From Candidatus Kuenenia stuttgartensis (GTDB lineage: Bacteria; Planctomycetota; UBA11346): DNA of 64,000 nt. The position numbers and the translations under genes are program-made. Every line of letters starts with the position of its first letter. The first letter of the stretch is position 1. The notes under the pieces are model-generated. The model saw only the letters and a program-made list of their open reading frames with translations, had not been told where the DNA came from and made no database searches. Shown in pieces: positions 1,028-21,706 of this stretch. Location of the stretch: the NCBI GenBank assembly GCA_945876185.1, contig CAMCMZ010000002.1, positions 92,203 to 156,202 on the forward strand. Reading direction: 5' to 3'.

Positions 1028-1669
1028 TCAGCGCGCCTCGACCACCAGATCGTCGAACAGGATCGGCTTGCCACCGACCGGGATGCCCCAGGCGACGGCG
1101 CGGCCGGCGGGCAGGGGTTTGTCGAGGGTGGCGGTGATGGTCGCGGTGGCAGGTTCGGGCTGGCCGTCGGCCCAGACTTTTCCCTCGACGGTGACGCCGC
1201 CATTGGAAATGGAACGGGTGGTGATGGCGAAGCGGGTCCAGGTCGCCGTGGCCCAGGTGGGGTAGGGGACGGTGGCGAGCACGGTGTCGCCCTGGGCGAT
1301 TTCGACCGCGTCCTTGGCGGTCGCCAGGCGCACGGTGGCGCCGCTGACGCCGTTGAGGCCGATCCCGAACGTCGGCGACTGGCGGCCTTTCTTCTCGGCC
1401 TTGATCTTCAACCGTGCGGTGGCGGCGTCCTTGCGCTGCGGTCCGAAAAGCACGCTGTAGGTGTCGAGCGGGGTCGGCGTCAATGCCAAGGCCTTGCCGG
1501 CGCCGTCCGCGACCAGGGTGTACTCGCCGCTGCACATGAGGTCGTCGGGCACGGCCTCGAGCTTGTCGAAGTTCTCGGCATAGAGCGGTGCGGCGTCACC
1601 GGCGCGGAGGCCGCAGACCGACAGTGCGGCGCAGCAGGCGAGGGTGAGGATGGGAAGAGATGGGCGCAT
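1028..1669 (-). CDS. Secreted hypothetical protein, ConA-like/beta-sandwich domain
   Basis: Signal peptide MRPSLPILTLACCAALSVCGLRA; beta-rich; resembles the C-terminal domain of the 15381-17696 protein. Confidence 0.7.
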   Translation of the reverse strand: MRPSLPILTLACCAALSVCGLRAGDAAPLYAENFDKLEAVPDDLMCSGEYTLVADGAGKALALTPTPLDTYSVLFGPQRKDAATARLKIKAEKKGRQSPTFGIGLNGVSGATVRLATAKDAVEIAQGDTVLATVPYPTWATATWTRFAITTRSISNGGVTVEGKVWADGQPEPATATITATLDKPLPAGRAVAWGIPVGGKPILFDDLVVEAR

Positions 1670-1719
1670 GGGAGATTCCTCAAAGATAGGAGGGATGTGG
1701 AAGGAAGCGGGAGGAGATA

Positions 1720-1859
1720 GCCACAAAGAGCACAAAGGTCACAAAGGGGGGGAAAAGAAACAGGCGCAGTGAACGCAGGACAGGGAGATGGCAACCGAAT
1801 GGGGAGCGGTATGAATGCCGTCATCCACAACCCTTTGTGAACTTTGTGCCCTTTGTGGC
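1720..1859. repeat. REP-like inverted repeat pair (GCCACAAAGAGCACAAAG family), copy 1
   Basis: gccacaaagagcacaaaggtcacaaaggg ... ccctttgtgaactttgtgccctttgtggc, intergenic. Confidence 0.8.
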
Positions 1860-1878
1860 CAATCCATCTCCCGCGGAT

Positions 1879-3150
1879 TCATAGCCGGATCCAGCGTTTG
1901 GACTTCAGCTCCGGTCGCGGCAGGGTGCCCGGCGAAACCGATCGCACCGGGATGCGCAGCGACAGCGCGGCGCGCAGTTCCTCGTGCAGGCGCTGGGCGA
2001 GCTGGTCGCCGTCGGCGCCCGGCTGCGGTTCAGATTCGACGGTGAGTTCGAGCATGCCGCGCTCGCTGGCGAGCAGGCAGCGGAACTCGGCGAGTTCACC
2101 GAATCGCCGCGCCACCGATTCGATAGCGGCGGGCCAAACGTTGATGCCGCGAATCACCACCATGTCGTCGCTGCGGCCAAGAATGCCGCCGTCGAGCGCA
2201 AGATGCGCCACGCCCTCCGGCGGTTCAGTGGCCGCGCGCACCAGATCACCGGTGCGGTAGCGCAAGAGCGGCGAGCCGAGACGGCCGAGGTTGGTGAGCA
2301 CCAGTTCGCCAATCGCGCCGGCTGGCACCGGCGCCAGGGTCGCGGGATCGATGATTTCGGCGATGTAGGACGTTTCCAGGATGTGGAGGAATCGTGGATG
2401 TTCCACGTTCTGCCACGACACCGGGCCGATCTCGGTCATGCCGTGGTGGTCGACGACCACCGCGCCTGGCCAAAGACGGTTCAGGATGGCGCGGGTCTCG
2501 GGAATGCTTCCGCCGGGTTCACCGGCGACAAACAGGCGGCGCAGGGTCGGCACCGCGATGCCCTCGGCCTGCGCCGTCTCGCCCAGTCGAATTGCATAGG
2601 TCGGGGTTGCGAGCAGCACCGTGACGCCGGCATCGCGCATGAGTTCCAACCGGGCGCGGGAACTCAGGCCACCGCCGGGCAGACAGCAACAGCCCAGGCG
2701 AGCGGCGGCTTCGAAGGCGGTCCAGAAGCCGAGGAAAGGCCCGAACGAAAATGCTGCGAAAACCCGGTCATTCCGGCCGATTCCCACAAAGTGCAGGAAG
2801 CGCACCCAGTTGCCGAGCATCCATTCCCAACTGGAGGCGGTGTCGAGCCAGCGCAGTGGCACCCCGGTCGAACCGCTGGTCTGGCAAAAGCGCGAGTAGC
2901 GGCCGAGGTCGTAGGTGAGGTTGCTGCCGAACGGAGGATGGGCGCGTTGATCCGCAACCAGTTCCGCCTTGGTGGTGAATGGGAAACGTGCGTGGAAAAC
3001 AGCACGATCGCAGGTCGCGGTCGTCAATCCGGCCTGGCACAGCTTCGTCGTCCAGAATGGATTCGCGCCGTCGATTTCGCGCAACAACGCTGCAAGCAGG
3101 CGATCCTGCTCCTCACGTATCAATTCGCGGGTTTCCACGCTGCGCGGCAT
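1879..3150 (-). CDS. Phenylacetate-CoA ligase family (PaaK-like) AMP-forming CoA ligase
   Basis: TSGSTG P-loop, HHGMTE, LLRYRTGD, GRSDDMVVIRGINVWP, C-terminal LPR..LKSKR. Confidence 0.85.
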   Translation of the reverse strand: MPRSVETRELIREEQDRLLAALLREIDGANPFWTTKLCQAGLTTATCDRAVFHARFPFTTKAELVADQRAHPPFGSNLTYDLGRYSRFCQTSGSTGVPLRWLDTASSWEWMLGNWVRFLHFVGIGRNDRVFAAFSFGPFLGFWTAFEAAARLGCCCLPGGGLSSRARLELMRDAGVTVLLATPTYAIRLGETAQAEGIAVPTLRRLFVAGEPGGSIPETRAILNRLWPGAVVVDHHGMTEIGPVSWQNVEHPRFLHILETSYIAEIIDPATLAPVPAGAIGELVLTNLGRLGSPLLRYRTGDLVRAATEPPEGVAHLALDGGILGRSDDMVVIRGINVWPAAIESVARRFGELAEFRCLLASERGMLELTVESEPQPGADGDQLAQRLHEELRAALSLRIPVRSVSPGTLPRPELKSKRWIRL

Positions 3151-3153
3151 GGC

Positions 3154-3720
3154 TCAGCGCGTCGACGCAACGCTGGATACTGGTGCTTCGGGCGCCTTCA
3201 CGACCTCGGCTGGCTTCTTGGGCGGTGGATTTGCGGGCTTGTAGAGCGACACCAGCGAGGCACCGGCAATGGCGAGCAGGATACCGAGCACGAACTGCCA
3301 GCGGATCGCGCCGAGTCCCTCGGCGGGCGGATGCAGGATAATCGCGGTCACCGCGTTGATGATCGGTGCCCCGGCGAAGACGATAGTCATCACCACCACC
3401 GGGTTGCCTTTCGCTCCGAAGGCGAGCAGCACGCCAAGGGCGCCGATCGCGCCCACGATGCCAGCCGCCAGCGACCACCACAGGCCCTTGCCGGGATAGC
3501 TCCAGTCTGCTCCGTTCATCCACAGGATGGCGAGCGGCGCGAGCACGGCGGTGAGAAAGTAGGCTACGCCGACGATGAGGAACGCTTTGATGCGGCCGTT
3601 CGCGGGATCGGCCATGCCGAGCTGGCCGGTGTGAAGAAGGATGCCGTAGACACCCCACGACACCACGGTGGTGAGGGTGAAGACGATCCAGAGGGCGGGA
3701 TTGGTGAGGGCGGAGGGCAT
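3154..3720 (-). CDS. DMT/EamA-like membrane protein
   Basis: About five hydrophobic helices with WGVYG and GAPI motifs. Confidence 0.65.
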   Translation of the reverse strand: MPSALTNPALWIVFTLTTVVSWGVYGILLHTGQLGMADPANGRIKAFLIVGVAYFLTAVLAPLAILWMNGADWSYPGKGLWWSLAAGIVGAIGALGVLLAFGAKGNPVVVMTIVFAGAPIINAVTAIILHPPAEGLGAIRWQFVLGILLAIAGASLVSLYKPANPPPKKPAEVVKAPEAPVSSVASTR

Positions 3721-3740
3721 GGGGTCCTTTTAGGCTTCGA

Positions 3741-4175
3741 TCAAAAGGGGAAATCGTCGTTACGTGATACACGCTCGACTTCCCTGTCCTTTGAAAACAG
3801 GGCGAAAACATCAGACATAATCCGATTGACCGAAGCCACTCGGTCAACCGCAATCACCTTCGTGAGTTTTCTCCAACTCCAGACCTTATCTTCGGTCACC
3901 GAGGACATGACAGCATAGTCGTGCACATTTCCCGCCTCATCTGGACGGCAATACACGGTGAGTCCAAGGGGAATCGCCAGGCCCTTGACCTCAATCCACC
4001 AACCCCAGTCCTCATTGCAAAACCAGGGGATGTCGTGGTCTGCTTCTCTCAGGTTGTCCTGAAGGTACTGGCAGATCGCCCGTCCATACATCCCGGGATT
4101 GACCAGTTCCTCGTCCTCTCCAGGCATCTTGTGAAATTTCCTGGTATGGATGGCAACGCAGATGCCAGGGATCAT
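3741..4175 (-). CDS. Hypothetical protein (lower GC than neighbours)
   Basis: Open frame with EDWGWWIEV; codon usage visibly more AT-rich. Confidence 0.65.
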   Translation of the reverse strand: MIPGICVAIHTRKFHKMPGEDEELVNPGMYGRAICQYLQDNLREADHDIPWFCNEDWGWWIEVKGLAIPLGLTVYCRPDEAGNVHDYAVMSSVTEDKVWSWRKLTKVIAVDRVASVNRIMSDVFALFSKDREVERVSRNDDFPF

Positions 4176-4218
4176 GGGATGACCAGTCCGTCGCATCGGC
4201 CCACGTCGGCACCACCAC

Positions 4219-4327
4219 GTAGCGCCGGCTTCAGCCGGCATGGACGGTGGGCTTCAGCCCACCGATCGCTGGTGCAAACTTGTGGCGACTGAAGTCGACA
4301 CTCCGAGCCGGCTGAAGCCGGCGCTAC
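4219..4327. repeat. GTAG-type REP doublet (REPIN-like)
   Basis: gtagcgccggcttcagccggc ... gccggctgaagccggcgctac perfect inverted pair, with internal hairpins (ggtgggcttcagcccacc). Confidence 0.85.
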
Positions 4328-4355
4328 GGAAGGCAGATCCGGGGAAATCACCGCT

Positions 4356-4784
4356 TCAACCTGCCACCGTCAACTGCTCCGCCCACGCCGGCAACGGCTG
4401 CGAGCGGATCTGCCCATCGACGCGCCCAACCGGGACGACGACCAGGCGGCCGGTGGCGAGGGGCGGTTGGCTTTCCTCGCCGGGACGGGTGAACGTGAAG
4501 CCGTAGGTGATCGCGCGCTCTTTCTTCTCCAACACGCTCAAGGTCACCGCCACCTCGTCATCGTAGCGCAGCGGGCGGCGGTAGTCGCACTCGGCGTGCA
4601 CGCGCGGCCAGCCGATCACGCCCTCGGGCGCGTCTTCGCCGGGATGGACGCTGGCGCCGAGCGAACGCACGAAGGCGTGCTCGCAGGCCTCCATGTAGCG
4701 GAAGAAGACCGAGAAATGCACGATCCCGGCCATGTCCGTTTCGTGGAACTCGACCCGGCGCAGGTGGGTGAAGGTGGCGGGCAT
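4356..4784 (-). CDS. Acyl/aryl-CoA thioesterase (4HBT/YbgC hotdog family)
   Basis: RVEFHETDMAGIVHFSVFFRYME; WPRVHAECDYRRPLRYDD. Confidence 0.85.
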   Translation of the reverse strand: MPATFTHLRRVEFHETDMAGIVHFSVFFRYMEACEHAFVRSLGASVHPGEDAPEGVIGWPRVHAECDYRRPLRYDDEVAVTLSVLEKKERAITYGFTFTRPGEESQPPLATGRLVVVPVGRVDGQIRSQPLPAWAEQLTVAG

Positions 4785-4792
4785 GGGCGGGG

Positions 4793-6058
4793 TCAGGCCT
4801 TCGCCGCCGCGCGCTGCGGGAAGTACGGCGTGCCGAAGTCGAGCAGGGGCGGGATCTTGGCGAATTCGCCAAATGCGGCGAAGAGCTTGGTGAAATCCTT
4901 GTCGACCGCGCCGATGATGCAGTCGGTGAGATCGGCTTTCAGTTCCGGGTACTTGCGGATGAAGCTGCCGTAGTTGGTCGACGGGTCGTAGAAGGCGTAG
5001 ACCAGCCGGCGCATGTTCTCGACCCCGTTGCAGTACTGCTTGCCGTAGCCGGCGAAGGCGGCGGCCGAGGTGTCGCCCTTGACCAGCGCCGCGTGGACGG
5101 CGTCGGCGGCGAGTTCACCGCTGCGCAGCGCGAAGAACGCGCCGGACGAGAATACCGGATCGAGGAAGTTGAAAGCGTCACCGGCCAGCACCAGGCCGTC
5201 CGTGGCACAGTGCTGAGAACGGTAGCTGTATTCATTGGTAATCTGCACGTCTTCGATCTGCTTCGCCGGAGCAAGGTGCTCGACCAGCCACTTGTTCTCG
5301 CGCACTTCGCGGTGGTAGATCTCGGACAGGTCCTGGGTGTCGCGGAAGAGGTATTCCTTCTTCGCGACCACGCCGACGCTCATCACGTCGTCGTGCAGCG
5401 GGATGTACCAAAACCAGCCCTTGTCAGGAATATAGCAGACCGTGGTGGCCCCCCCGGCCCGGCCGGCATCGCGGGTGGCGCCCTTCCAATAGGTCCAGAT
5501 CGCGAAGCGGTCGAGCGGCACGTCGGGCCGGCGCCAGTTGAACTGGTTGACGGATAGGCAGTCGCGGCCCGAGGCGTCGAGTACGATGGGTGCGCGCAAC
5601 TCGAATTCTTTGCCGGCAGCGTCGGTGCCGGCGACGCCGACCACGCGGCCATCTTCAAGGACCAGGCGCTTGGCCTGGTAGCCATGGCGGATCTCGGCGC
5701 CTTTTTCGCGGGCGTTGTCGCGCAGCATCGCGTCGAATTCGCTGCGTCGGACCTGCCAGGTCTGAGTCGCGGGATGATCGAAGTGGCTGTCGAAGAAGAA
5801 CGGCTGCGACTGCTTGCCGTCGGTGCTGACGAAGCAGATCGAGTACTTCTTGGTAAAATGGCTGGCCCGCATCTTGTCGAGCATGCCGATGCGTTCGAGG
5901 GTGAAATACGTGTACGGGATCAGCGATTCGCCGATGTGGTAGCGCGGGAAGGCGGACTTGTCGAGCACCGTGACCTTATGCCCGTGCTGGGCGAGCACGG
6001 TGGCGGCGGTGGTGCCGGCGGGGCCGGCTCCGACGACGATGACTTCGGGAGTGCTCAT
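4793..6058 (-). CDS. Flavin-dependent halogenase-like oxidoreductase
   Basis: GAGPAG, FPRYHIGESL, FTKKYS (Lys at the halogenase position), GWFWYIPL (WxWxIP), GDAFNFLDPVFSSG. Confidence 0.8.
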   Translation of the reverse strand: MSTPEVIVVGAGPAGTTAATVLAQHGHKVTVLDKSAFPRYHIGESLIPYTYFTLERIGMLDKMRASHFTKKYSICFVSTDGKQSQPFFFDSHFDHPATQTWQVRRSEFDAMLRDNAREKGAEIRHGYQAKRLVLEDGRVVGVAGTDAAGKEFELRAPIVLDASGRDCLSVNQFNWRRPDVPLDRFAIWTYWKGATRDAGRAGGATTVCYIPDKGWFWYIPLHDDVMSVGVVAKKEYLFRDTQDLSEIYHREVRENKWLVEHLAPAKQIEDVQITNEYSYRSQHCATDGLVLAGDAFNFLDPVFSSGAFFALRSGELAADAVHAALVKGDTSAAAFAGYGKQYCNGVENMRRLVYAFYDPSTNYGSFIRKYPELKADLTDCIIGAVDKDFTKLFAAFGEFAKIPPLLDFGTPYFPQRAAAKA

Positions 6059-6726
6059 GGCTGGGTCTCCGGTTGGGTTGGGGTTTGGGGAAGATGCGAA
6101 AGATGAGGGAAGAGAGCTGCCGGCGGCAGGATCTCGACCACCTCGGCTAATGGATGACCGTCTGCCAGCGCGATGGTGTTGCAACGGCCGTACAGGGTCG
6201 GCTGTTCAGTCGGTAAGATCGCGAACAGCCGAGCCAGAACGCGGTCGGTTTCGACGCGGAAGAATGCCGACGGCTGGCTGAAATGCGGCACCTGGTAGTG
6301 CGCCAGGATGCCACCGAACGGCTTGCAGCCGTGCAGGATCTCCTCCTGGGCCGGGGCGGGCAGGCGGTCGAGGTGGATGCGGATCGCGCCGTATTCCACC
6401 GGACGGTCGCCGCTGTCGAGCAGCATCACCTGGCGGCGGTAGTCGGGATGGTGGTGGATCGAATCGAGCACGACGATGTGCAGCGGACAGCCGTGGAACG
6501 CGATGAGGTTGGGCGTCATGTCGCGCTGATTGACGAGCAGGGTGCGGTACGGCTCGGGCATCGCCGAGCCATCGATCACTGCCGGGATGGATGACGGCGT
6601 GCCGGCCCCGGCTTCAGCCAACGGCGCGAAGCGAGGGTCGCGGGTGGCGACCTGGGCCAGCTGGGCCCGACGGCGGATGGTCGCCGTGGTCATGTCAGGC
6701 GGCCTTTGGCTGGAGCTCAAGTTCAC
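6055..6726 (-). CDS. Chorismate-lyase-fold (UbiC/DUF98-like) protein
   Basis: LL..rDMT..L, YRRQVMLLD...PVEYG, PFGGIL, LYGR....VVEILPP match the chorismate pyruvate-lyase pattern; start may be the ATG near 6693. Confidence 0.6.
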   Translation of the reverse strand: MNLSSSQRPPDMTTATIRRRAQLAQVATRDPRFAPLAEAGAGTPSSIPAVIDGSAMPEPYRTLLVNQRDMTPNLIAFHGCPLHIVVLDSIHHHPDYRRQVMLLDSGDRPVEYGAIRIHLDRLPAPAQEEILHGCKPFGGILAHYQVPHFSQPSAFFRVETDRVLARLFAILPTEQPTLYGRCNTIALADGHPLAEVVEILPPAALFPHLSHLPQTPTQPETQP

Positions 6727-8099
6727 GCATATCTGGCCCCAGCGTGCTTGGGAAGGAAGAACGCGTGCAGCAGGCGGTCGACTTCGAGCAGCGCGCCGCG
6801 GGTCAGGGTCAGGCGGGCGCCGTCGATCTCGGCCAGTTTCTGGCTGACCAGGTCATCGAGCTGCGGCTTGAAGCGCACCAACGGATCAGTGCCGAACTTC
6901 TTGGTGAAATAAGAGGTGTCGAGGTGGCCGAGCTTCATCTGCAGGATGAACTCGCGGATCAAGCGTTCATCGTTGTCCGGGGTCAGCGCCCGGTGGATGG
7001 GCAGCTCGCCCTTCTTCACCCGGTCGACGTAGGGCGCGAAGTCGTGCTCGTTCTGGTAATGGACCCCATTCAAGTGCCCGAACGAAGCCACGCCGAGGCT
7101 GAGCAGATCGGCGCCGGCCCACAGGCTGTCGCGGTAGACGAAGCTGGTCTTGCTCGGATTGCGCACGGCGGTGTAGGCGCTTTTCACTGCGTAGCCGGCG
7201 GCTTCGAGCGCGGCGAAGGCCTCGGCCACCCAGCGTCGCTTGGTCTGCCAGTCGGCGACCGGGGCGGTGATCTTGCCCTCGGCTTTCATCTGCTTGTAGA
7301 TCGTCGTATTGTACGGGACCTCCATCTGGTAGATGGTCACCGAATCCGGCGCCATCGCGATGGTCTTGACGATATTGGCGCGCCAGTTGTCTTCCGTTTC
7401 GTTCATCATCCCGGCGATGAGGTCGATGTTCACCTGCGGAAATTCGCACGAGCGGGCGTAGTCGTAGGCGCGCTGGATCTGGGCCGACAGATGCGCGCGG
7501 CCGTTGCTTTCCAGGATGTGGTCGTCGAAGTTCTCGACCCCAAGGCTCAGGCGCGTGACGCCGATATCGCGGATGGTGCGGATCTTGCGGTCGGTGAGCG
7601 TCCCTGGCTCGCACTCGAAGGTGACCTCTTCGGCGCCTTCCCACGACACCTCGCGCTTCATGCCATCAGTCAGCGCGACGAGCTGTTCCGGCGAGAGGAA
7701 CGACGGGGTGCCGCCGCCGAAATAGACGAACTGGGCTTTGCGGCCGACGATCGCGGGCTGCTTGGCATAGAGCGCAAGTTCGGCCAGGGCGGCGTCGAGA
7801 TAGCCTTGGATCTCGTCGTTCTTCTTGTCGGTGTAGACCCGGAAATAGCAGAAATGGCAGCGCTTGCGGCAGAACGGGATGTGCAGGTACACCCCGAGCG
7901 GATTGCCGGGCCGGGGCGGCTTGGCGATCGCGGCGTGGGCTTCGTTGACGCGGGCTGTGTCCCAGTACGCGTACGGCGGGTAGTTGGAAACGAAGTAGTT
8001 GCCGACCGTGGTCTGCTCGGCGCTGTCTCCGCCCGCACTGTCTCCGCCTGCACCGGTGGCAGCAGCGAGATCCGTGGAAGCCTGGGGCTCGGTGGTCAT
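6723..8099 (-). CDS. HemN-like class C radical SAM enzyme
   Basis: YLHIPFCRKRCHFCYF, YFGGGTPS, ECEPG, RLSLGVENF, NIDLIAG. Confidence 0.88.
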   Translation of the reverse strand: MTTEPQASTDLAAATGAGGDSAGGDSAEQTTVGNYFVSNYPPYAYWDTARVNEAHAAIAKPPRPGNPLGVYLHIPFCRKRCHFCYFRVYTDKKNDEIQGYLDAALAELALYAKQPAIVGRKAQFVYFGGGTPSFLSPEQLVALTDGMKREVSWEGAEEVTFECEPGTLTDRKIRTIRDIGVTRLSLGVENFDDHILESNGRAHLSAQIQRAYDYARSCEFPQVNIDLIAGMMNETEDNWRANIVKTIAMAPDSVTIYQMEVPYNTTIYKQMKAEGKITAPVADWQTKRRWVAEAFAALEAAGYAVKSAYTAVRNPSKTSFVYRDSLWAGADLLSLGVASFGHLNGVHYQNEHDFAPYVDRVKKGELPIHRALTPDNDERLIREFILQMKLGHLDTSYFTKKFGTDPLVRFKPQLDDLVSQKLAEIDGARLTLTRGALLEVDRLLHAFFLPKHAGARYA

Positions 8100-8151
8100 G
8101 GCTGCCGTCCTGTCTATTGGTGGCGGTGGGGCACCGCCGGGGAATTCGAAC

Positions 8152-9330
8152 TCAGGCGGCGTGGAGCGCCGCGCGATACAGCGCGAGGAAGGCCTCGCGA
8201 TCGACCGGCCGCGGATTGAACCGGCCGGTCCATTGAGTGGTGGCCGATTCCACCAGGGCGGGAAGGTCGGCCTCCGCGACGCCACAATCGGCCAAGCCGG
8301 AGGGCAGTCCGGCGAGACGGGCAAGCCCTTCGACCCGACTGATGAGCGCATCGACGGCGGCGACCGTAGTCCCGCCTGGGTTGAGTCCAGCCTGCACCGC
8401 CAGCGCGGCATAGATCTCGGCCGTGGCTGGATCACCGGCGTTGAAGCGCAGGACGCTCGGCAGCATCATCCCCACCGCCTGGCCGTGCAGGATGCCGTGG
8501 CGGATGGTGAGCGGATTTGCGCAGGCGTGGGTGGCACCCAGCATGCTGTGCTCGATCGCGACGCCGGCCCAGGCCGCGCCGACCTGGATCGCCTGACGGG
8601 CGTCGAGGTCGGACGGGGTTTCCAGCACGCGGGGCAGGTTGGCCTGGATGAGGGCGAAGGCCTCGCGGGCGAACAGCGACGACACCGGCGTGCGCTTGGT
8701 GGTGACCGCCGTTTCCAGCGCATGCACCAGGGCATCGAAGCCGGTCAAGGCGGCGACCCGGCGCGGCTGGGTCAGGGTCAACTCGGGATCAAGCAGCGCG
8801 ATGCGGGCGAGCGCCTTGGGATCGCCGCAGGCCATCTTCTGGTGGCTCTCTTCATCGACGATGAGTGCGAACGACTGGCATTCGCTGCCGGTGCCGGCGG
8901 TGGTCGGCACCGCGATGAGTGGCAGGAACGGCTTGCTGGCCGCCCCGGTGTGCCAGTAGTCGCGCATCTTGCCGCCATTCGAATACAGGAAATTGCAGCC
9001 CTTGGCGGTATCGAGCGAACTGCCGCCACCGGCGGCGACGATGGCGTCGGGGCCGAAGGCGCGCGCGGCGATCAGGCAGGCGTCGACCTCGCGGGTGCCG
9101 GGATTCTCGCGCACGCGGTCGAAGACCTCCACGGCGATCTCAGCCGCTTGCAGGTTGGCGACCAGCCGGGCCGCATGGCCGGCGCTGACGATGCCGGGAT
9201 CGGTGACCAGCAGGACGCGGCTGGCGCCGAGTTCACGCGCCAGCGCGCCCAATCGCGCGGCCACCCCGGGGCCAGAGATGATCCGAGGCCGGGCGGCGAA
9301 GTCGAACGCGCTGACCACCCCGGCAGTCAC
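8152..9330 (-). CDS. Iron-containing alcohol dehydrogenase
   Basis: GGGSSLDTAK, VPTTAGTGSE, GFDALVHALE, GATHACANPL..HG. Confidence 0.9.
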   Translation of the reverse strand: MTAGVVSAFDFAARPRIISGPGVAARLGALARELGASRVLLVTDPGIVSAGHAARLVANLQAAEIAVEVFDRVRENPGTREVDACLIAARAFGPDAIVAAGGGSSLDTAKGCNFLYSNGGKMRDYWHTGAASKPFLPLIAVPTTAGTGSECQSFALIVDEESHQKMACGDPKALARIALLDPELTLTQPRRVAALTGFDALVHALETAVTTKRTPVSSLFAREAFALIQANLPRVLETPSDLDARQAIQVGAAWAGVAIEHSMLGATHACANPLTIRHGILHGQAVGMMLPSVLRFNAGDPATAEIYAALAVQAGLNPGGTTVAAVDALISRVEGLARLAGLPSGLADCGVAEADLPALVESATTQWTGRFNPRPVDREAFLALYRAALHAA

Positions 9331-9339
9331 GCTGCCGCC

Positions 9340-10776
9340 TCAGCCAGCGACCTGCACGGCGCGGCGGCGATAGAGGAACTCGAAGAGGTTGCCTTCATGG
9401 GGCTGATCCCAGTGGACGTGACTGGTCGGCATCGCGCCGAGATTCAAACGATGGATGAGCGGCGAGGCCAGCAACGCGCGGCGCCAGGCGGGATCGTCAC
9501 CGATGGCCGAGACCACCAGCGAAGGCCCGATGAGGTCGAGCATGCGGCTCTGCGGCACCTCCACCACAGACGTATACGGGAAGAGGAACTCGCGGTTGGC
9601 GAGTGGATGGTCGAAGCTTCCACAAGCGACCACGGTGGGCAGCAGGTAGGTGCGGCCGTCGTGGACGACCAGGCGCGGACCGGCGCGCAGCTTGGCGCTG
9701 TGGTCGACCGCGCCGGGTTCCTTGAGCCCCTGATCGATGCTGGCCGAGATCGATTCCGCCATCGCCGGGTTGGCGAAGCCGGCGAGACCGGCGCCGGCAT
9801 CGTCGGCCGAGCGCGGAACGATCGTCGCCAGACGTTCGGCCAGGGCAGCGGCGATGGCAGCGCCGTTGCGCGGGACCACGATCGCCGAGGCGTTGACGCA
9901 CGAGCGTCCGCCATTGGCGGCGACGGAATCCGCCAGGACGGGGATCAGTTCCTGCCAACGGTCGATGTGCGTCTCGCCAATAAGCACCTTGCTGTAGCCG
10001 GGGCCGTGGACTTCCACGCGCGGATCGCTGGCCCAGCGCTTGGTGATGCTGGCGTCGCCGAACAGCAGCGAGCGACCGCAGCCGGCGAGCACGGTGTGGG
10101 CGCCGTCGTGGCCGGTCGGGTAATAGCCGAACGCCTTGGCCGGGACGCCTCCCGCGATCAGCGCCTGGATGATGCGCCAGGGTGTCCACGGATCGTCGCG
10201 ACCGGGCTTCAGGATCACCGGCACCTTGAGGGCGAGCGCGGGGATCCACAGGGAATTCACGCCAGGCGAGTTCGACGGCAGCACCACGCCCAGGGCGTCG
10301 GCGGTGCGGTAATAGCTGACCGGCACGCCGGACTGGGTGCCCAGGCCGGCATCGATCACGGCGGGATCCAACCCGCGCGTCAAGCCGCGCAGGATCTCGT
10401 CCATGTTGTTCAGGACATAGGCGATCTTGCCCATGTTGTTGCGCACCAAGGCGTGCGGCAGACCGGTGCTGGCCGAGGCCTGACGCACGTAGTCCTCGGG
10501 CGCTTGCTGGTCGCCGGCGTCGCCCACCGGCAGGGTGCCGTGCTGGTAGAGTTCACCCGCCTTGCGGCACATGGCGAACAACTGCGCCGTCGGGATGTCC
10601 TGCAGGGCCGCGACGGCGCCCGACAGATTGAGCAGATCGCGGCGGATCAGGCCGGAGTTGACCTGGCTGACTACGGCCCCGGCCGTGGTCGCGGTGTCCT
10701 GGCTGCGGTAAGCAGTGCCGAAGCGCAGGGCGGGGATGTGAATGCGGGGCCCCTCTGGGGTGTCGTGTGTAGCCAT
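9340..10776 (-). CDS. Aldehyde-dehydrogenase-fold acyl reductase (GriD/EhpG/LuxC-like)
   Basis: VLPSNSPGV, LKPGRDDPWT, HGPGYSK replacing ELGGK, catalytic Cys in NGGRSCVNAS. Confidence 0.75.
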   Translation of the reverse strand: MATHDTPEGPRIHIPALRFGTAYRSQDTATTAGAVVSQVNSGLIRRDLLNLSGAVAALQDIPTAQLFAMCRKAGELYQHGTLPVGDAGDQQAPEDYVRQASASTGLPHALVRNNMGKIAYVLNNMDEILRGLTRGLDPAVIDAGLGTQSGVPVSYYRTADALGVVLPSNSPGVNSLWIPALALKVPVILKPGRDDPWTPWRIIQALIAGGVPAKAFGYYPTGHDGAHTVLAGCGRSLLFGDASITKRWASDPRVEVHGPGYSKVLIGETHIDRWQELIPVLADSVAANGGRSCVNASAIVVPRNGAAIAAALAERLATIVPRSADDAGAGLAGFANPAMAESISASIDQGLKEPGAVDHSAKLRAGPRLVVHDGRTYLLPTVVACGSFDHPLANREFLFPYTSVVEVPQSRMLDLIGPSLVVSAIGDDPAWRRALLASPLIHRLNLGAMPTSHVHWDQPHEGNLFEFLYRRRAVQVAG

Positions 10777-10779
10777 GAT

Positions 10780-11901
10780 TCAGTACACGCCTTCGATGAT
10801 CTTGCCGCTCTGGGCCCCGAACGGCCGCACGTCGGCGACACCATCCCAGGGATAACAGACGTAGGGTTCGCGGCGCTGGGCCTCGTCGCGCTCCAACAGA
10901 CGCGGCATGAAGAACTCCTTGGTGAAGGTCGACAGCTCGACCCGGCCCCAACCCCCGACGGCGACGTCCTTGGTCGAATCAGCGGGGTCGACCACGCGCA
11001 GCACGGCGCGCGGTTGCGGCGCGTGGTAGACCACGCTCCAGCCGCCCTTGGCCGAGACTGGCTCGCTACAGGCCAGACCCATCAGGGTGTTGCCATAGGT
11101 CGGCACGAACTGGGCTTTGCCTTCCAGCACTTCCTCGGCCAGGAAGCGCACCACTTGCGGCGTCATTGAGGTGCCGCCGCAGAACACGCCCTTGATGCCG
11201 AGGCCGACCAGCGAGGTGCGCTCGGCCATGGCTTCCAGGATCTTCGGGGTGGTGAACAGGCAGTTGATGCCCTGGCGGTGGCGCAGGATGGTGATCGCCT
11301 GGTCGACGACGTGCTCTTTGTAGGCCTCGGCCTGGGCGTAGTCGCCCTTGCCGATGCAGCGCTTCACCCAGCGCGGGTCGAGGTCGAGGTGATAGCAGCA
11401 GCCGCCGCGCACGTTGGCGAGGTGCTCGATCGCCAGGCGCAGCCGGCGCGGGCCGGTCGGACCGGCCATCAGCCAGTCGGAACCCTTGGGGAAGTACTTC
11501 TCTTCGATGGTGTTCGAGAATTCCGAGTAGTCGTGGTCGTGGTCGGTCCACGAGATGCGCTGCTTCGGCATGCCGGTGGTACCACCGGTCTCGAAGATCT
11601 TGAACGGCTTGCCGGCGTAGGCCTTGGGCACCCAGCGCTTGGGCTGTTCGTCGCGCAGCCATTCGTCGTTGAAGTTGGGGAAGCGCAGGATGTCGGCGAA
11701 GCCTTTGACCTCCTTCGCCGGATCCCAGCCCGCCTGCTTGGCCCAGTCGAGCCAGAACGGGCTGCCGGTCGCCGGCGAGAAGTGCCACTTCACGATCGCG
11801 CGCACGTGCGCGTCGAGCTTATTCTTCGCCTCGGCGACGGCGTCGGCCTTTGCTGAAGATTTTGCGGCGGAGGACTTGGCGGTTTTGGCGGACGAGGTCA
11901 T
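10780..11901 (-). CDS. EhpF/GriC-like aryl-carboxylate adenylating enzyme
   Basis: WHFSPATGSPFWL, ETGGTTGMPK, GPTGP, DLDPRWVKR, C-terminal IIEGVY, all motifs recalled from EhpF-type proteins. Confidence 0.75.
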   Translation of the reverse strand: MTSSAKTAKSSAAKSSAKADAVAEAKNKLDAHVRAIVKWHFSPATGSPFWLDWAKQAGWDPAKEVKGFADILRFPNFNDEWLRDEQPKRWVPKAYAGKPFKIFETGGTTGMPKQRISWTDHDHDYSEFSNTIEEKYFPKGSDWLMAGPTGPRRLRLAIEHLANVRGGCCYHLDLDPRWVKRCIGKGDYAQAEAYKEHVVDQAITILRHRQGINCLFTTPKILEAMAERTSLVGLGIKGVFCGGTSMTPQVVRFLAEEVLEGKAQFVPTYGNTLMGLACSEPVSAKGGWSVVYHAPQPRAVLRVVDPADSTKDVAVGGWGRVELSTFTKEFFMPRLLERDEAQRREPYVCYPWDGVADVRPFGAQSGKIIEGVY

Positions 11902-13550
11902 GGGGTGACAGCTCCGGTGTTGGCGTTCTTGGGGGGGAAGTACTTGTCGATGATTGCCTGCGGCGGCGGCCGGCTGATCAGCGACCCGACGACCATCAGG
12001 ACGGCTCCGATGAGGACCATCGGCATGACCGGCAGGAAGCCATAGATGGTCACCCCGCCACGGCCGCGCAGGAATAGTTCACCCAGGTCAGCGAAGATCG
12101 GCACATAGGGCACGCCGGGCTTGAGGGTCTTGATCAGCGGTTCGCTGTAGTTGTGCAGCCACCACACCCCGATCATCGCGATCACTACCCAGATCACCGC
12201 GAGCCAGGCGCCAAGGGCGGTCGATCGCTTCCAGAACATCGCGCCGAGCATGACCGGCGCGAGCGCGGCGAAGCCCGAGAACGCGAAGCGGATGGCGAGT
12301 TCGAAGATGCCTTCCTGCTTCTTGAGGGCGACCGCGATGAGGTAGGCGACGAGGCAGATGACCACGATGAAGATGCGGCCGGTCCAGATCTGGACCTTGT
12401 CGCCAAAGCGCTTCTGGCCGCCGTAGTGCGCGAATATGTCCTGGGTGAACATGGTGGTCAGGGCCATGATCTGGCTGTCCGACGCCATGACGCAGGCCAT
12501 GATGCCGGCCCCGAGGATGCCGGCCATCCACACGCTGGTGTACTTGGTGAGCAGGTCGGGAATGACGTCGTTGGTCTCGCCCGGCTTCAATCCGGGCAGC
12601 AGGTCGGCCGAGATCAGGCCAAGGTAGACGCAGGGCAGCCAGATCGCGGCGATGCAGAGCGGGTAGAAGATCACGGTCTTCTTGAAGTGGCTGACCTTTT
12701 CCGCGGTGAAGCACATGATCGCGATATGCGGGAACATGATCGCCGACAACGGGATGAACATGTAGCTGAAGAACTCGGCCTGAGGGATGCGATCGCGCGC
12801 GAGCAGTGGGGCGAGGGTCTTGTTGTTGGCGATGCGTTCCATCACCACGTCGAAGCCGCCGATGTTGTGGCTGAGGATGATCACCGCGACGGCGCCCATG
12901 CCGAGGAACAGCACGGTCTGGAAGGTGTTCACCCAGGCCGTGCCACGCATGCCGCCGAAGAACACGTAGCTCATCACGACCAGGGCGACCAGGGCGCCGC
13001 CGAGTTCATAGGGGATCCAGTGCTGGTGCTCCTGCACGGCCTTGCCGTTCCGCATGACCTCGACCAGGACCGCCTTGCCGTCAGCCCCGGTGACCACGCT
13101 GATCGATTCCATCACCTCGCCGCCACCCATCACCCCGATGATGATGTAGGGCACGAGCATGACCGCGGTGACCAGGAAGATCAGGGTGCCCAGCGACGAC
13201 GAACCCCAGCGGTCGCGGAAGTAGCTGACCTGGGTCATGTGGCCGAACTTCTTGCCCAGGCTCCAGAGCCGGGTGCCGATGAAAAATATCGTCAGCGGGA
13301 TGACGATGGCCGAGGCCGAGGCCATCAGGCCGAACACGCCGATGCCGCGTGAATAGGTCAGTCCCGAGCTGCCGAGGATGGCGAACGCGGTCATGTTGGT
13401 ACCGAACAGCGAGAGCAGGAAGACCCACTGCCCGAGCGACCGGCTGGCGACGAAGTAGTCCTCGCTCGAATTCTTGCCCTTGCGGAAGGCGAAGACGCCG
13501 ATGTAGAGGACGATGGCAAGATAGATGAAGACGACGATCGCGGGAATCAC
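11898..13550 (-). CDS. Sodium:solute symporter (SSS family)
   Basis: EDYFVASRSLG, YVFFGGMRGTAWVNTFQ, about 13 TM helices. Confidence 0.9.
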   Translation of the reverse strand: MIPAIVVFIYLAIVLYIGVFAFRKGKNSSEDYFVASRSLGQWVFLLSLFGTNMTAFAILGSSGLTYSRGIGVFGLMASASAIVIPLTIFFIGTRLWSLGKKFGHMTQVSYFRDRWGSSSLGTLIFLVTAVMLVPYIIIGVMGGGEVMESISVVTGADGKAVLVEVMRNGKAVQEHQHWIPYELGGALVALVVMSYVFFGGMRGTAWVNTFQTVLFLGMGAVAVIILSHNIGGFDVVMERIANNKTLAPLLARDRIPQAEFFSYMFIPLSAIMFPHIAIMCFTAEKVSHFKKTVIFYPLCIAAIWLPCVYLGLISADLLPGLKPGETNDVIPDLLTKYTSVWMAGILGAGIMACVMASDSQIMALTTMFTQDIFAHYGGQKRFGDKVQIWTGRIFIVVICLVAYLIAVALKKQEGIFELAIRFAFSGFAALAPVMLGAMFWKRSTALGAWLAVIWVVIAMIGVWWLHNYSEPLIKTLKPGVPYVPIFADLGELFLRGRGGVTIYGFLPVMPMVLIGAVLMVVGSLISRPPPQAIIDKYFPPKNANTGAVTP

Positions 13551-13792
13551 TTGCCGGCTCCTTTGTTTTTAGCGGCGGCGGCAGCTTCTTTTGCTTCGTC
13601 TTCATCGAGGTGCTTCGGCCACATCGTCTTGACCAGCAGCAGCATGGTCAGCGAGGCCGCCACAGCGTAGCAGGCGTGATAGAACAGGCCGATCGGAATC
13701 AGGCCGCCGACCAGGGACCGGTCAGGCCAGTTCCAGAAATCCTGGTGCAAGGCGATCAGCAGCACCACCCAGGCGGTGACGAGGTATTTCAC
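13547..13792 (-). CDS. Small symporter-associated membrane protein (DUF3311-like)
   Basis: LHQDFWNW..LVGGLIPIGLFYH; two TM helices; overlaps the SSS start. Confidence 0.75.
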   Translation of the reverse strand: MKYLVTAWVVLLIALHQDFWNWPDRSLVGGLIPIGLFYHACYAVAASLTMLLLVKTMWPKHLDEDEAKEAAAAAKNKGAGK

Positions 13793-15384: not shown

Positions 15385-17696
15385 GGGGCCTTCTTCGCGG
15401 AAGCGTTCGGGGTGACCGAGATATTGTCGAGGTAGACGCGCTGTTCGGTCGGGCTGAAGCCGAACAAGCCGGGGGATCCCTGGCGATGGGCGACCTGGTG
15501 CGTAGTTTCGATGGTCCAGGCCGCCGGTTCGGCTTCGTCGCGTTTCCAGGCCTTGGCGCGGACGACCCCGCTGCCGTCGGGGTTGAGATCCACCCGGGCG
15601 GTCATGCGATACCACACTCCGGGGGTGACCGTGAACGGCACCGAGGCGCGGATGCGTTCGAGGTTGGAATTGATCTCAAGTTCCTGGGCATTGCCCTTGA
15701 GGATGATCATGTAGCGCTGGTTGATCAGGCCGACCTCGCTCATCTTGCGGCGGTTGCCATCCGTCTTCATGTCGGCCTGGATGGTGTAGTCGGACTGGTC
15801 GGCCAAGCCGATGAACACCGTCGCACGCTGGAAGAGACGGTTGTCGATGGTCTTGGTGAACACCTTGTTGCCGTCGACCTCGGTGACCTCCCACTTGAGG
15901 CGCGCGCCGATCCACGGCAGGGGCGGGTAGGCGAAGACATGGTCGAACTTCACCGGTTTCTTGTCGAACATGTGGGTGTCGCTGAGTTCGTATTGCGAGA
16001 AGTCCTCTTTGATCGGCAGGTTGTTGAGGATGCGGCCGCGCAGGTAGCCGGTGAGGTTGCCGGCGGTGGCCTTGAACATGCCGGCCGACGGGCGTGGCTT
16101 CACCTCGGCGATGATGGTGCCGGGATCGGTCCACGAGGCGTCGAGCAGGCTCTGGATGCGGGCGGTGGGCGGAATGAATTTTTCCCAGGTCACGGGCGCG
16201 CTGGCGTGGTAGTCGACCGGCAGACCATCGGCGTCGACCGCACCCATCTTGACCGCCCGATTTTCACCGGTGCGCAGGATGACCTCGGCGGGAATGGGCT
16301 GCAGTTTGACCGGCGCAGCGGTGGACTTGGGCAGCGTGGCCACCGGTGCCGGGGTGGGGGAGGCGCGCACGGTGCCGAAGCAATAGAGTTTCTCAGTGCT
16401 GTGGATGTAGACGCGGCCGTGGGCGATCGCGGGGGCGCCATTGTTTTCGCCCGCCAGCTTGACCGACGACAGGACCTCTGCCTTGGTGTCCGTGGGCCGG
16501 ACGATCAAGAAAGTGCCATCCTTGATCGGCACATAGAGTTTGCCGTCGCCGTAGGCGATGGACGAATGAAGCTGATCGATGCCGAATTTTTCATGCCAGA
16601 GCTGCTTGCCGGTCTTGGCATCGACCGCGACCAGTTCGGCGGTTTCGGTGGTCAGGTAGATCCGGTCACCGACCACGATGGGCGAACTCGACCAGGCAGC
16701 CAAGCCGGGGTTGCGCCAGACCTCTGCCGAGCGCGGCAGGATCGGGGTCTGACTGACCTCGATATCGGCCGGACCGGCCTTGACCTTCAGGTCGATGGCG
16801 ACCAGCCGGCCGCTTTCGCTGGTGTCGACGTTTTCCTTGGCGTGGATGGCGACCAGGCGATCGTCGCCCAGAAGAAGCACGGAACTGTTGATGCCGCCAT
16901 AGGACAGCGGGAATCGCCACTGCGGTTCCCCGGTGTTGGCGTCGATCGCCACTACGTTGCCGCAGCCGGTGCCAGAGAAGAATACTTCGCGTTTGCCAAG
17001 CTTTCCGAACACCGGCGTGCCCATCGAGTTATCTTTGGGCCGGATGCCGGGGCTTGAGGACCAGATCTGGTCGCCGGTGCGTTTATCATAGGCATAGAAG
17101 CGGTCCTGCACCGGTCCGTGGGCGCCCCAGTTCGAGGTCATGCAGTGCACGATCACCAGATCGCGGTGGATCGACGGCGGTCCGGTGCGGCCGTTGGGGA
17201 AAGTCATGCGGCCGAGTTCTTCCATCAGCGATCGGTGCCAGAGCGCCTTGCCGTCGGCCGTGAACGCCGCGAGCATGCCGGCCGAGGTCTGGACGTAGAC
17301 GTTGCCGGTGTCGCCGTCGATGACCGGCGCACCAATCGAGTAGCGGCTGTAGATGATGTCGCTCAGGAAATCGCTGAAGCCCTGTTCCCAGACGGTCTTG
17401 CCGGTCGCGGCGTCGAGGCAGCGCAGAACCTCGCGCATCATTTGGCCCTCGCCCTGGTAGCCCAGGACGTAGACGCGTTCACCCCGGATGACCGGGGTGC
17501 CGCGGCCCATCAGGGCGACCTCCCACAACTGGCCAGCCCCACCCGGCGTCCACGACCCGGGCAGGTCCTTCTCATCGCTGACCCCGTTCTGATGCGGACC
17601 GCGCCAACCCAGCCAGTCGGCCTCGCTGGCAGCGGTGGGGGTCGCAGCCAGGACGGCAAACATGAGGCAGCCGAACAGGCAAAAACGGGAAATCAT
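15381..17696 (-). CDS. PQQ-binding-like beta-propeller protein with C-terminal ConA-like domain
   Basis: Signal peptide, DWLGWRGPHQNG, multiple CLDAATGKTVWE-type blades, beta-sandwich C-terminus. Confidence 0.85.
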   Translation of the reverse strand: MISRFCLFGCLMFAVLAATPTAASEADWLGWRGPHQNGVSDEKDLPGSWTPGGAGQLWEVALMGRGTPVIRGERVYVLGYQGEGQMMREVLRCLDAATGKTVWEQGFSDFLSDIIYSRYSIGAPVIDGDTGNVYVQTSAGMLAAFTADGKALWHRSLMEELGRMTFPNGRTGPPSIHRDLVIVHCMTSNWGAHGPVQDRFYAYDKRTGDQIWSSSPGIRPKDNSMGTPVFGKLGKREVFFSGTGCGNVVAIDANTGEPQWRFPLSYGGINSSVLLLGDDRLVAIHAKENVDTSESGRLVAIDLKVKAGPADIEVSQTPILPRSAEVWRNPGLAAWSSSPIVVGDRIYLTTETAELVAVDAKTGKQLWHEKFGIDQLHSSIAYGDGKLYVPIKDGTFLIVRPTDTKAEVLSSVKLAGENNGAPAIAHGRVYIHSTEKLYCFGTVRASPTPAPVATLPKSTAAPVKLQPIPAEVILRTGENRAVKMGAVDADGLPVDYHASAPVTWEKFIPPTARIQSLLDASWTDPGTIIAEVKPRPSAGMFKATAGNLTGYLRGRILNNLPIKEDFSQYELSDTHMFDKKPVKFDHVFAYPPLPWIGARLKWEVTEVDGNKVFTKTIDNRLFQRATVFIGLADQSDYTIQADMKTDGNRRKMSEVGLINQRYMIILKGNAQELEINSNLERIRASVPFTVTPGVWYRMTARVDLNPDGSGVVRAKAWKRDEAEPAAWTIETTHQVAHRQGSPGLFGFSPTEQRVYLDNISVTPNASAKKAP

Positions 17697-20569: not shown

Positions 20570-20634
20570 GGCGGCAGGGTTCGGGTTGGCTTGTATTTGG
20601 GATAGACGGAAGCGGTTCGGGATCCCTGAGCGTG

Positions 20635-21585: not shown

Positions 21586-21706
21586 GATCGGCGCAGTACA
21601 GGGTGGATGCGCGGACAGCGCAAGGCGCCGCCGGACCAGGACGTGACGGAGATGGCTGCGCGCCCCAGACTGCGAAACCGGTTGCCGCACGGGTACTAAC
21701 ACAAGC

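Follow-up and report, generated by a model that had tools for sequence, protein, structure and literature searches.

Two-protein carboxylate reductases are known from the antibiotic clusters for grixazone in Streptomyces griseus (GriC/GriD) and for D-alanylgriseoluteic acid in Pantoea agglomerans (EhpF/EhpG), in which an adenylase without the C-terminal domain of the ANL family is encoded beside an aldehyde dehydrogenase (ALDH)-like protein. In the grixazone pair, GriC forms the acyl-AMP of 3-amino-4-hydroxybenzoic acid (3,4-AHBA), which GriD reduces to the aldehyde (PMC10179220). Here we describe a predicted pair of this type, encoded by g05 and g06 of a fifteen-gene operon (g01-g15) in a 64,000-nt stretch of DNA, hereafter the window, from Candidatus Kuenenia stuttgartensis, apparently of lake origin (Planctomycetota; GenBank assembly GCA_945876185.1, contig CAMCMZ010000002.1, positions 92,203 to 156,202). 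Whereas the GriC/GriD and EhpF/EhpG genes belong to actinomycete and enterobacterial antibiotic clusters, those of the g05/g06 type are tied to secreted beta-propeller proteins in the Planctomycetota-Verrucomicrobiota-Chlamydiota (PVC) group, Acidobacteriota and Chthonomonadales; g06 is likened to GriD and EhpG by family and gene position.

Other genes of the operon also have described counterparts. In the baaA/baaB locus of Planctomycetales strain 10988, which makes 3,5-dibromo-p-anisic acid, a chorismate-lyase-like gene adjoins that of a brominating flavoenzyme, and this is the nearest described arrangement for g09 and g10; the product proposed for BaaA/BaaB, as for Bmp6/Bmp5 of Pseudoalteromonas, is a halogenated 4-hydroxybenzoate (10.1101/723874). 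As described there, the baa locus is not genetically validated and, unlike the operon, has no reductase pair, radical S-adenosylmethionine (SAM) enzyme or propellers; BaaB is Bmp5-like according to its authors (10.1101/723874), whereas g10, compared by description, belongs to another class, that of the FADH2-dependent WxWxIP halogenases. CndH (3e1t), PltA (5dbj), CmlS (3i3l) and 5buk/5bva have fold, motifs and a lysine in common with g10. Unlike CndH/PltA/CmlS-type systems, the cluster of g10 includes no carrier protein and no non-ribosomal peptide synthetase (NRPS) or polyketide synthase (PKS) partner, and g10 has 421 aa against 512 in CndH and 591 in CmlS. An aryl ligase and a 4HBT thioesterase, as in g14 and g11, are found in the 4-chlorobenzoate pathway and, as PaaK/PaaI, in phenylacetate catabolism; unlike these routes, the operon holds no dehalogenase or ring-oxygenase genes. 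A broader analogy is offered by the pyrroloquinoline quinone (PQQ) genes and quinoprotein dehydrogenases, where propellers of eight blades in the periplasm depend on a cytoplasmic synthesis route with a radical SAM step, and the operon adenylase, which does not occur without its propeller, may be likened to the PQQ genes with their quinoproteins. The two systems differ in that no PqqA-E homologues were found for the operon, and its propellers P1 and P2 (g01 and g02) fall outside the PQQ-dehydrogenase families.

A preliminary description of this DNA, made from its letters, had proposed a PKS/NRPS-free operon for an aromatic metabolite or cofactor, and knew of no characterised pathway with this combination. 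No study or characterised pathway with this gene combination was found in the literature searched, a limited library that did not cover MIBiG. The enzyme families are all known; the combination, and its strict genomic coupling to secreted propellers, is new. We tentatively favour a conserved PKS/NRPS-free pathway in which an aryl acid would be tailored, reduced to an aldehyde or alcohol and handed to periplasmic propellers.

Gene order and conservation of the operon

An open reading frame (ORF) check of the window placed fifteen minus-strand ORFs, none with an internal stop, at 1028-17696 (Table 1). This agrees with the fifteen same-strand genes of the preliminary description, and the six 4-nt stop/start overlaps listed there (15381-15384, 13789-13792, 13547-13550, 11898-11901, 6723-6726 and 6055-6058) are each present. 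Elsewhere, neighbouring genes are 3, 9, 52, 8, 114, 20, 3 and 143-209 nt apart. TGA is the stop codon of all fifteen genes, and at the six overlaps it runs into the next start as ATGA or GTGA. The start of g08 was set at the ATG at 8099, although the ORF extends to 8435, because the alignment with relatives begins only near residue 28. For g15 the probable start is 1669, and the 213-aa form from that start occurs letter for letter as an entry in the Atlas. Families were assigned to g01-g15 with Pfam and NCBIfam, and no family-assigned protein of the operon reached a specific NCBIfam equivalog cut-off.

Table 1. Genes of the operon, with coordinates in the window and predicted products.
Gene	Label	Coordinates	Strand	Predicted product
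g01	P1	15381..17696	-	771-aa secreted protein; N-terminal PQQ_2-type beta-propeller and C-terminal ConA-like domain
g02	P2	13789..15384	-	531-aa secreted PQQ-like propeller of eight blades, rich in invariant polar residues
g03		13547..13792	-	81-aa small membrane protein, DUF3311-like, paired with symporter
g04		11898..13550	-	Sodium:solute symporter (SSS) family transporter
g05	F	10780..11901	-	EhpF-type adenylating enzyme without ANL C-terminal domain
g06	G	9340..10776	-	ALDH-superfamily reductase partner of g05
g07		8152..9330	-	Iron-containing alcohol dehydrogenase
g08		6723..8099	-	HemN-like (class C) radical SAM enzyme
g09		6055..6726	-	223-aa protein of chorismate-lyase/UTRA fold
g10		4793..6058	-	421-aa flavin-dependent halogenase, CndH/PltA/CmlS-like group
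g11		4356..4784	-	Hotdog-fold 4HBT-type acyl-CoA thioesterase
g12		3741..4241	-	166-aa (or 144-aa) unrelated insert between thioesterase and membrane-protein genes
g13		3154..3720	-	188-aa polytopic membrane protein
g14		1879..3150	-	PaaK-like aryl/arylacetyl adenylate-forming ligase
g15		1028..1669	-	Secreted ConA-like/DUF1080-like protein (structural lead)

Of 41 related genomes, 8 carry the adenylase gene (F). When one genome per species was scanned, 45 loci were recovered from metagenome-assembled genomes (MAGs) labelled as Planctomycetota, Verrucomicrobiota, Acidobacteriota, Chthonomonadales and other taxa; the counts that follow refer to 48 loci, of which many are truncated by contig ends. 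The complete gene order is retained in five genomes of the same family, and the core in another family at 32-54% identity (L014) as well as in Verrucomicrobiota, Phycisphaeraceae, Chthonomonadales and one Opitutales genome of 40% GC. Because the same gene order is found in other phyla, the operon is more than a product of chance. The earlier proposal of one conserved unit free of PKS and NRPS genes is supported, and the co-occurrence that the preliminary description led one to expect in PVC and Acidobacteria genomes was found. The consensus order runs from a divergent MarR gene through P1, P2, DUF3311, SSS, F, G, alcohol dehydrogenase (ADH) and a third propeller (P3) to the radical SAM (rSAM), UbiC-like (g09-type) and halogenase (Hal) genes, followed by a family 4 glycosyltransferase (GT4), the thioesterase, the membrane protein, the PaaK-like ligase and the ConA-like protein.

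The 48 loci carry these genes to very different extents: F in 46, G in 30 (together with F in one locus in 30), P2 in 27, P1 and SSS in 23 each, ADH in 21 and DUF3311 in 20; rSAM in 15, the membrane protein in 14, P3 in 13, and UbiC-like and halogenase in 12 each, one of the 12 halogenases being a 32% paralogue; GT4 and the divergent upstream MarR in 12 each, thioesterase in 10, ABC in 7, PaaK-like in 6, FtsX in 4 and ConA-like in 3. The rSAM, UbiC-like and halogenase genes are consecutive in 11 loci. The system is modular: propellers, adenylase, reductase and iron-containing ADH are most often kept together, and rSAM/UbiC-like/halogenase and thioesterase/membrane protein/PaaK-like form looser modules, sometimes placed elsewhere in the genome. 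The copy in the window has lost the MarR, P3 and GT4 genes; a GT4 of 36-38% identity lies on another contig of this genome. Some relatives add a MacB-type ABC exporter, and the Acidobacteriota loci (L051, L052, L054 and L058) comprise F, G, GT4, ABC, FtsX/MacB, a propeller and the membrane protein. The MarR homologue matches NCBIfam models that include HpaR, BagL/FevM and BilQ, all below cut-off.

The adenylase-reductase pair

The g05 protein matches EhpF of the PDB over its full length (E 2.9e-48, query 17-373 to 9-369 of 369 aa), and EhpF is an ANL adenylase that lacks the C-terminal domain. The Pfam AMP-binding match of g05 is weak, and its GGTTGxPK motif is invariant in our alignment of homologues (alignment A2). 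At least 8000 homologues were found at E <= 1e-20, the top 120 all being at least 65% identical, and the identity of F across phyla is 62-69%. Its neighbour g06 gave a weak match to Pfam Aldedh (E 2.6e-8) and weak matches to ALDHs in the PDB; the residues C293, N169 and K190 are the same in all 26 sequences aligned. The two genes are separated by 3 nt. A model of the g05-g06 complex scored 0.79, the best control 0.00. Among 80 solved complexes 58 reached the mark used, and among 110 mismatched pairs 2 did. Contacts agreed between runs to at least 86%, and the predicted local distance difference test (pLDDT) score of the partner was at least 90. The modelling supports the prediction that g05 and g06 bind each other. 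On account of the EhpF homology, the invariant cysteine of g06, the tight linkage and the complex model, the assignment of g05/g06 as a predicted two-protein carboxylate reductase of EhpF-EhpG/GriC-GriD type, already made in the preliminary description, is supported, and this is the best-supported step of the pathway. An alternative label for the pair, 'LuxE/LuxC-like', was dropped, neither protein having a LuxE or LuxC match in Pfam.

The alcohol dehydrogenase g07 matches Pfam Fe-ADH (E 1.4e-48) and ADH_Fe_C (E 3e-35), and its gene adjoins G even where F lies elsewhere. Loci with F alone (L029-L035, L037 and L048) had suggested that F may act without G. This was rejected, G being encoded elsewhere in four of five such genomes, where it adjoins ADH in two of the three loci retrieved.

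In a Planctomycetota genome that looks complete (G027), the F and G homologues are separated by a gene for a '23S rRNA-intervening sequence protein' (L015, 9070-9483). In another genome the G homologue was matched as five pieces in different frames (G043:C2:815856-817273, L064-L068), which suggests frameshifts or assembly errors. Some Verrucomicrobiota MAGs (L030, 6908-14297, and L033) carry an adenylase homologue of about 67% identity apart from the cluster, where it adjoins a protein with vanadium-chloroperoxidase-like domains (VCPO_2nd, DUF6851), with an aminotransferase nearby.

Coupling of the adenylase to the second propeller

An even sample of 301 Planctomycetota genomes was searched with profiles, a match to the F profile below E 1e-130 being counted as strong and the P2 profile being applied at E 1e-80. 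Related genomes are not independent, so the counts are not to be read as statistics; they span many families and two phyla. The F profile matched 76 genomes (57 strong, 19 weak) and the P2 profile 66, namely all 57 strong-F genomes and nine without F, while all 43 genomes matched by the UbiC-like profile lie inside the 57. Throughout one family F, UbiC-like and P2 are present in all 15 genomes, several of which are closed (G071, G097, G195 and G288), despite scattered genes: the G071 positions of these three genes are 5.77, 2.08 and 3.27 Mb, with the halogenase at 4.48 Mb. The genome G195 has P1-P2-ADH-P3-rSAM-UbiC-like in one locus and F-G in another. Among Verrucomicrobiota, F was found in 4 of 251 sampled genomes, and P2 in all five F-positive genomes tested. 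The strong-match adenylase is therefore never without the second propeller, both in the Planctomycetota sample and in the Verrucomicrobiota tested. The 19 weak matches (E 1e-41 to 1e-69 to the F profile) form a distant second adenylase family in other Planctomycetota families, for example in G060, G113 and G156, and none of these 19 genomes is among the P2 or UbiC-like matches.

Radical SAM, UbiC-fold, halogenase, thioesterase and ligase genes

The assignments made earlier to the enzymes downstream of the reductase pair were mostly borne out. The class C radical SAM protein g08 has the Radical_SAM core (E 3e-19), CxxxCxxC and GGGTP motifs in its translation and a HemN_C domain (E 4.7e-5) at 23.8 bits against a cut-off of 24; it scored below the NCBIfam cut-offs of ChuW/HutW (192.8/400 bits), HemN (169.7/324.95) and HemW (155.1/205.4), and its chemistry may be methyl transfer or decarboxylation.

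No Pfam or NCBIfam model, those of Chor_lyase and DUF98 included, matched g09. The chorismate-lyase fold previously read into it was recovered by AlphaFold2 (pLDDT 85.7) and Foldseek, the top match being 2nwi (DUF98; E 6.1e-8, template modelling score 0.75 by target), followed by UTRA domains, the effector domains of GntR regulators. An alignment of g09 with E. coli UbiC, examined for the catalytic residues, pairs DMT, R-x-(I/V)-L-L, PLG and GR stretches and ends before the C-terminal Glu. One UbiC-like homologue (L020, 16141-16719) has an in-frame stop inside the aligned stretch, and its row was excluded from alignment A1.

The halogenase g10 matches Pfam Trp_halogenase (E 4.7e-30) and an FAD-protein family, and the PDB halogenases 8zop, 3e1t, 5buk, 3i3l and 5dbj (E 1.8e-53 to 6.6e-48). 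The motifs GxGxxG, WxWxIP and FxDPxFSxG define the FADH2-dependent halogenases, and g10 has all three as GAGPAG, WFWYIP and FLDPVFSSG; among 12 homologues, all keep W.W.IP and 10 keep F.DP.FS.G. The Lys of its 'FTKKYS' stretch, also kept in homologues, aligns with residue 76 of CndH (3e1t), counted on the printed alignment, a lysine that is presumably catalytic. Motifs, lysine and family match uphold the halogenase call, and at 214.7 bits against a cut-off of 900 g10 is not a member of the CmlS equivalog of NCBIfam.

For the thioesterase g11 the 4HBT families were matched (4HBT_2, E 4.3e-10; 4HBT, E 1.2e-8), as proposed. The ligase-type protein g14, earlier described as a CoA ligase, combines AMP-binding (E 4e-12) with AMP-binding_C_2 (E 3.3e-10), the architecture of PaaK; its scores with the NCBIfam PaaK models (175.9/700 and 147.9/646 bits) are far below the cut-offs.

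Propeller and ConA-like proteins

Both propellers that the preliminary description had placed at the head of the operon match PQQ_2 (g01, E 2.6e-33; g02, E 7.2e-21), and their secretion, as claimed there, is supported: g01 has a hydrophobic N-terminus in its translation, and g02 a possible lipobox, so that g02 is possibly lipidated. Against the NCBIfam model of the PQQ alcohol-dehydrogenase subfamily g01 and g02 scored 65.6 and 30.4 bits, with a cut-off of 480, and are not members. The AlphaFold2 model of g02 (pLDDT 86.1) gave generic propeller matches only, the best by Foldseek being BamB, tetrathionate hydrolase and PQQ-dependent ADHs, and the eight-bladed fold alone is common to the propellers and PQQ-dependent dehydrogenases in this g02 comparison. 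Four histidines (H233, H259, H294 and H389) and the loop G384-Q-D-P-E-H-G390 of g02 are invariant in 28 sequences.

The C-terminus of g01 resembles g15 (BLASTP E 8e-4), and the Atlas structure row of g15 matches 773-aa PQQ_2 proteins at a template modelling score of 0.78, its structure resembling the C-terminus of P1-like proteins. For g15, previously described as a secreted ConA protein, no Pfam match was found; the Atlas gives this description a lead only, its feature neighbours including PF06439 clusters (score 0.96, 152-159 features in common).

Transport genes, the insert and the surroundings of the operon

The small protein g03 matches DUF3311 (E 2.5e-6) at 27.9 bits, just below the cut-off of 30, and genes of its type adjoin the SSS gene in 20 of the 48 loci. 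The symporter g04 matches Pfam SSF (E 1.2e-39), its best NCBIfam models being PanF and PutP, below their equivalog cut-offs. For g13, the earlier label of drug/metabolite transporter (DMT) is weak: neither Pfam nor NCBIfam offers a family that matches the window protein, and EamA was signalled in the homologue of L056 only, marginally (E 0.0019, 18.9 bits against 28.2). By this resemblance g13 is possibly a single-domain EamA/DMT-type transporter. The loci with a gene of its type include the Acidobacteriota variant.

Between the thioesterase and the membrane protein, g12 had been marked as an insert, and rightly so, for it is missing from all 48 related loci and stands outside the conserved system, having been gained by this copy. 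It has no Pfam or NCBIfam match; the form from residue 23 is present in the Atlas, in clusters listed solely as 'hypothetical'. Within g12, at 3850-3823, lies a 12-bp stem-loop with a U-poor tail. A scan for promoters and terminators was uninformative: it found no promoter-like site, and the number of terminator-like sites was 10, where 10.4 were to be expected from shuffled sequence.

Directly upstream of the operon, at 17958-21804 of the window on the minus strand, are MenE-, MenC- and MenA-like genes with matches to AMP-binding, MR_MLE and UbiA. The G+C content of the operon is about 0.64, against about 0.70 in these genes. A functional tie to the neighbouring menaquinone genes was rejected, the adjacency recurring in only one of the 48 related loci, which is of the same genus (L016).

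Discussion

The gene layout described earlier holds, and its reading as an aromatic pathway is upheld in part. In the pathway that we tentatively favour, the acid would arise from chorismate via g09, or be imported via g03/g04. The halogenase (g10) and the class C radical SAM enzyme (g08) would act on its ring, possibly while the acid is bound as a CoA thioester, for which the PaaK-like g14 would be the ligase and g11 the releasing thioesterase. With g05 as the adenylase and g06 as its Cys-dependent, ALDH-like partner, the acid would then be reduced to the aldehyde, which the iron-containing ADH g07 could convert to the alcohol. Where clusters are fuller than that of the window, GT4 would glycosylate the product and MarR regulate the operon; export may proceed by g13 or, in some lineages, by the MacB-type ABC system, and g01, g02 and g15 would bind, unmask or use the product. 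That the propellers are linked to the pathway is shown by the phyletic coupling; their role is one that we infer, as are the product and the order of the steps. We likewise infer an aromatic substrate, because the operon and its relatives bring together a UbiC-fold protein, a halogenase, a PaaK-like ligase alongside a 4HBT thioesterase, and a MarR whose sub-cut-off matches include regulators of pathways for aromatic compounds. Glycosylation, export and periplasmic handling are suggested by the GT4, by the membrane protein or ABC pair, and by the secreted propeller and ConA-like proteins, respectively.

Several observations weigh against such a pathway. The g09 protein lies outside the Chor_lyase and DUF98 sequence families of Pfam, one of 12 homologues matches Chor_lyase (E 0.2), and its alignment by hhalign to E. 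coli UbiC is weak (probability 2.4%, E 0.02). Among the nearest solved halogenases are those of the CndH, PltA and Bmp2 type, which use carrier-protein-bound substrates; the gene coordinates of the cluster leave no room for a carrier gene, and a flavin reductase gene is likewise absent from it. SSS transporters are importers and fit poorly with a biosynthesis of export type. The conservation of F across phyla, together with its presence in all 15 genomes of one family, looks more like that of a housekeeping function than of a variable secondary metabolite. The window operon is without the MarR, P3 and GT4 seen in relatives. Finally, the Acidobacteriota loci, L038 and L043 carry F and G without the aromatic module, a point tempered by the finding that the module can sit elsewhere in the genome, as in the split of the G195 type.

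Some of this evidence suits a rather unlikely alternative, in which the secreted propellers and ConA-like protein would oxidise a compound outside the cell or set it free, with the resulting carboxylate imported by the DUF3311/SSS pair and converted in the cytoplasm by g05-g07 under MarR. On that account the genes for the halogenase, the radical SAM enzyme and the UbiC-like protein would be an addition of separate origin; against this, the UbiC-like gene occurs solely in F-positive genomes (43 of 43), and the aromatic module is therefore not independent. SSS proteins are importers by family, the commonest unit is P1-P2-DUF3311-SSS-F-G-ADH, no other window genes follow within about 7 kb downstream in L038 and L043, and a divergent MarR stands upstream in a quarter of the loci (12 of 48); moreover, the observation that F never occurs without P2, whereas nine genomes hold P2 without F, fits a downstream step that needs a periplasmic one. 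An ATP-driven reduction of carboxylate to alcohol would, however, be odd in catabolism, in which the GT4, thioesterase, halogenase and MacB-type exporters also have no clear place, and several clusters have an ABC/FtsX pair in place of SSS. The same asymmetry between F and P2, in the 57 strong-F Planctomycetota genomes and the five tested in Verrucomicrobiota, can be accommodated by a cofactor system, though we regard this as improbable: the cytoplasmic enzymes would produce a small aromatic cofactor, either redox-active or able to bind metal, for export to the PQQ-like propellers, much as the pqq genes serve quinoproteins. It is no more probable that the operon, and its counterparts with dispersed genes, would make a new small aromatic cofactor, possibly halogenated or C-methylated and hydroxybenzyl-derived, for use by a new class of PQQ-like, eight-bladed propeller enzymes in bacteria for which the search gave no PQQ synthesis gene. 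The best structural matches of P2 are BamB scaffolds rather than enzymes, and the PQQ-enzyme models of NCBIfam lie far below their cut-off; P2 does share the fold of PQQ dehydrogenases, and its four invariant His and GQDPEHG loop, kept across phyla, are active-site-like. PqqC was not found in any of five genomes searched, a search without a positive control and with an equally silent control panel. The conservation of F is high for a biosynthetic enzyme, which speaks for a cofactor, while a GT4 step and a thioesterase would be unusual in cofactor synthesis.

The Acidobacteriota variant, with its order F-G-GT4-ABC-FtsX-propeller-membrane protein (L051, L052, L054 and L058), points in another direction, to an envelope glycolipid or glycoside for which g05-g07 would reduce a fatty or aryl-alkyl acid to the alcohol, GT4 glycosylate it, and the MacB-type ABC system or g13, with BamB-like lipoproteins, pass it to the outer membrane. 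DevC exports heterocyst glycolipids, and the FtsX protein matches DevC weakly (E 5.4e-6); the possible lipobox and BamB-like fold of P2 are in keeping with this route as well. We nevertheless give it little credence, for lipid-synthesis genes are present in no locus, the window has neither GT4 nor ABC, and the halogenase, UbiC-like and aromatic-type MarR genes point to a small aromatic compound. That several unrelated units merely stand side by side on one strand is hardly credible: transcripts could be divided at the insert g12 and at the gaps of 114 and 143-209 nt, and in some relatives the genes are distributed over at least two loci, but six 4-nt overlaps join them, they travel together across phyla and co-occur even when unlinked, and the counts disfavour such a reading.

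The adenylase has at least 8000 environmental homologues, named 'hypothetical' or 'PaaK-like', and is present in about one-fifth of the sampled Planctomycetota (57 of 301), and the gene set occurs in Verrucomicrobiota, Acidobacteriota and Chthonomonadales of lakes, bogs and soils as well. It would extend two-protein carboxylate reductases well beyond antibiotic clusters. If the product is a halogenated aromatic alcohol or glycoside, these bacteria may be a widespread freshwater and soil source of natural organohalogens; if the propellers instead receive a cofactor, a new enzyme-cofactor system would be defined. Either way, the coupling offers a testable function for the BamB-like propellers, a group that PVC genomes carry in abundance and that is still mostly unexplained.

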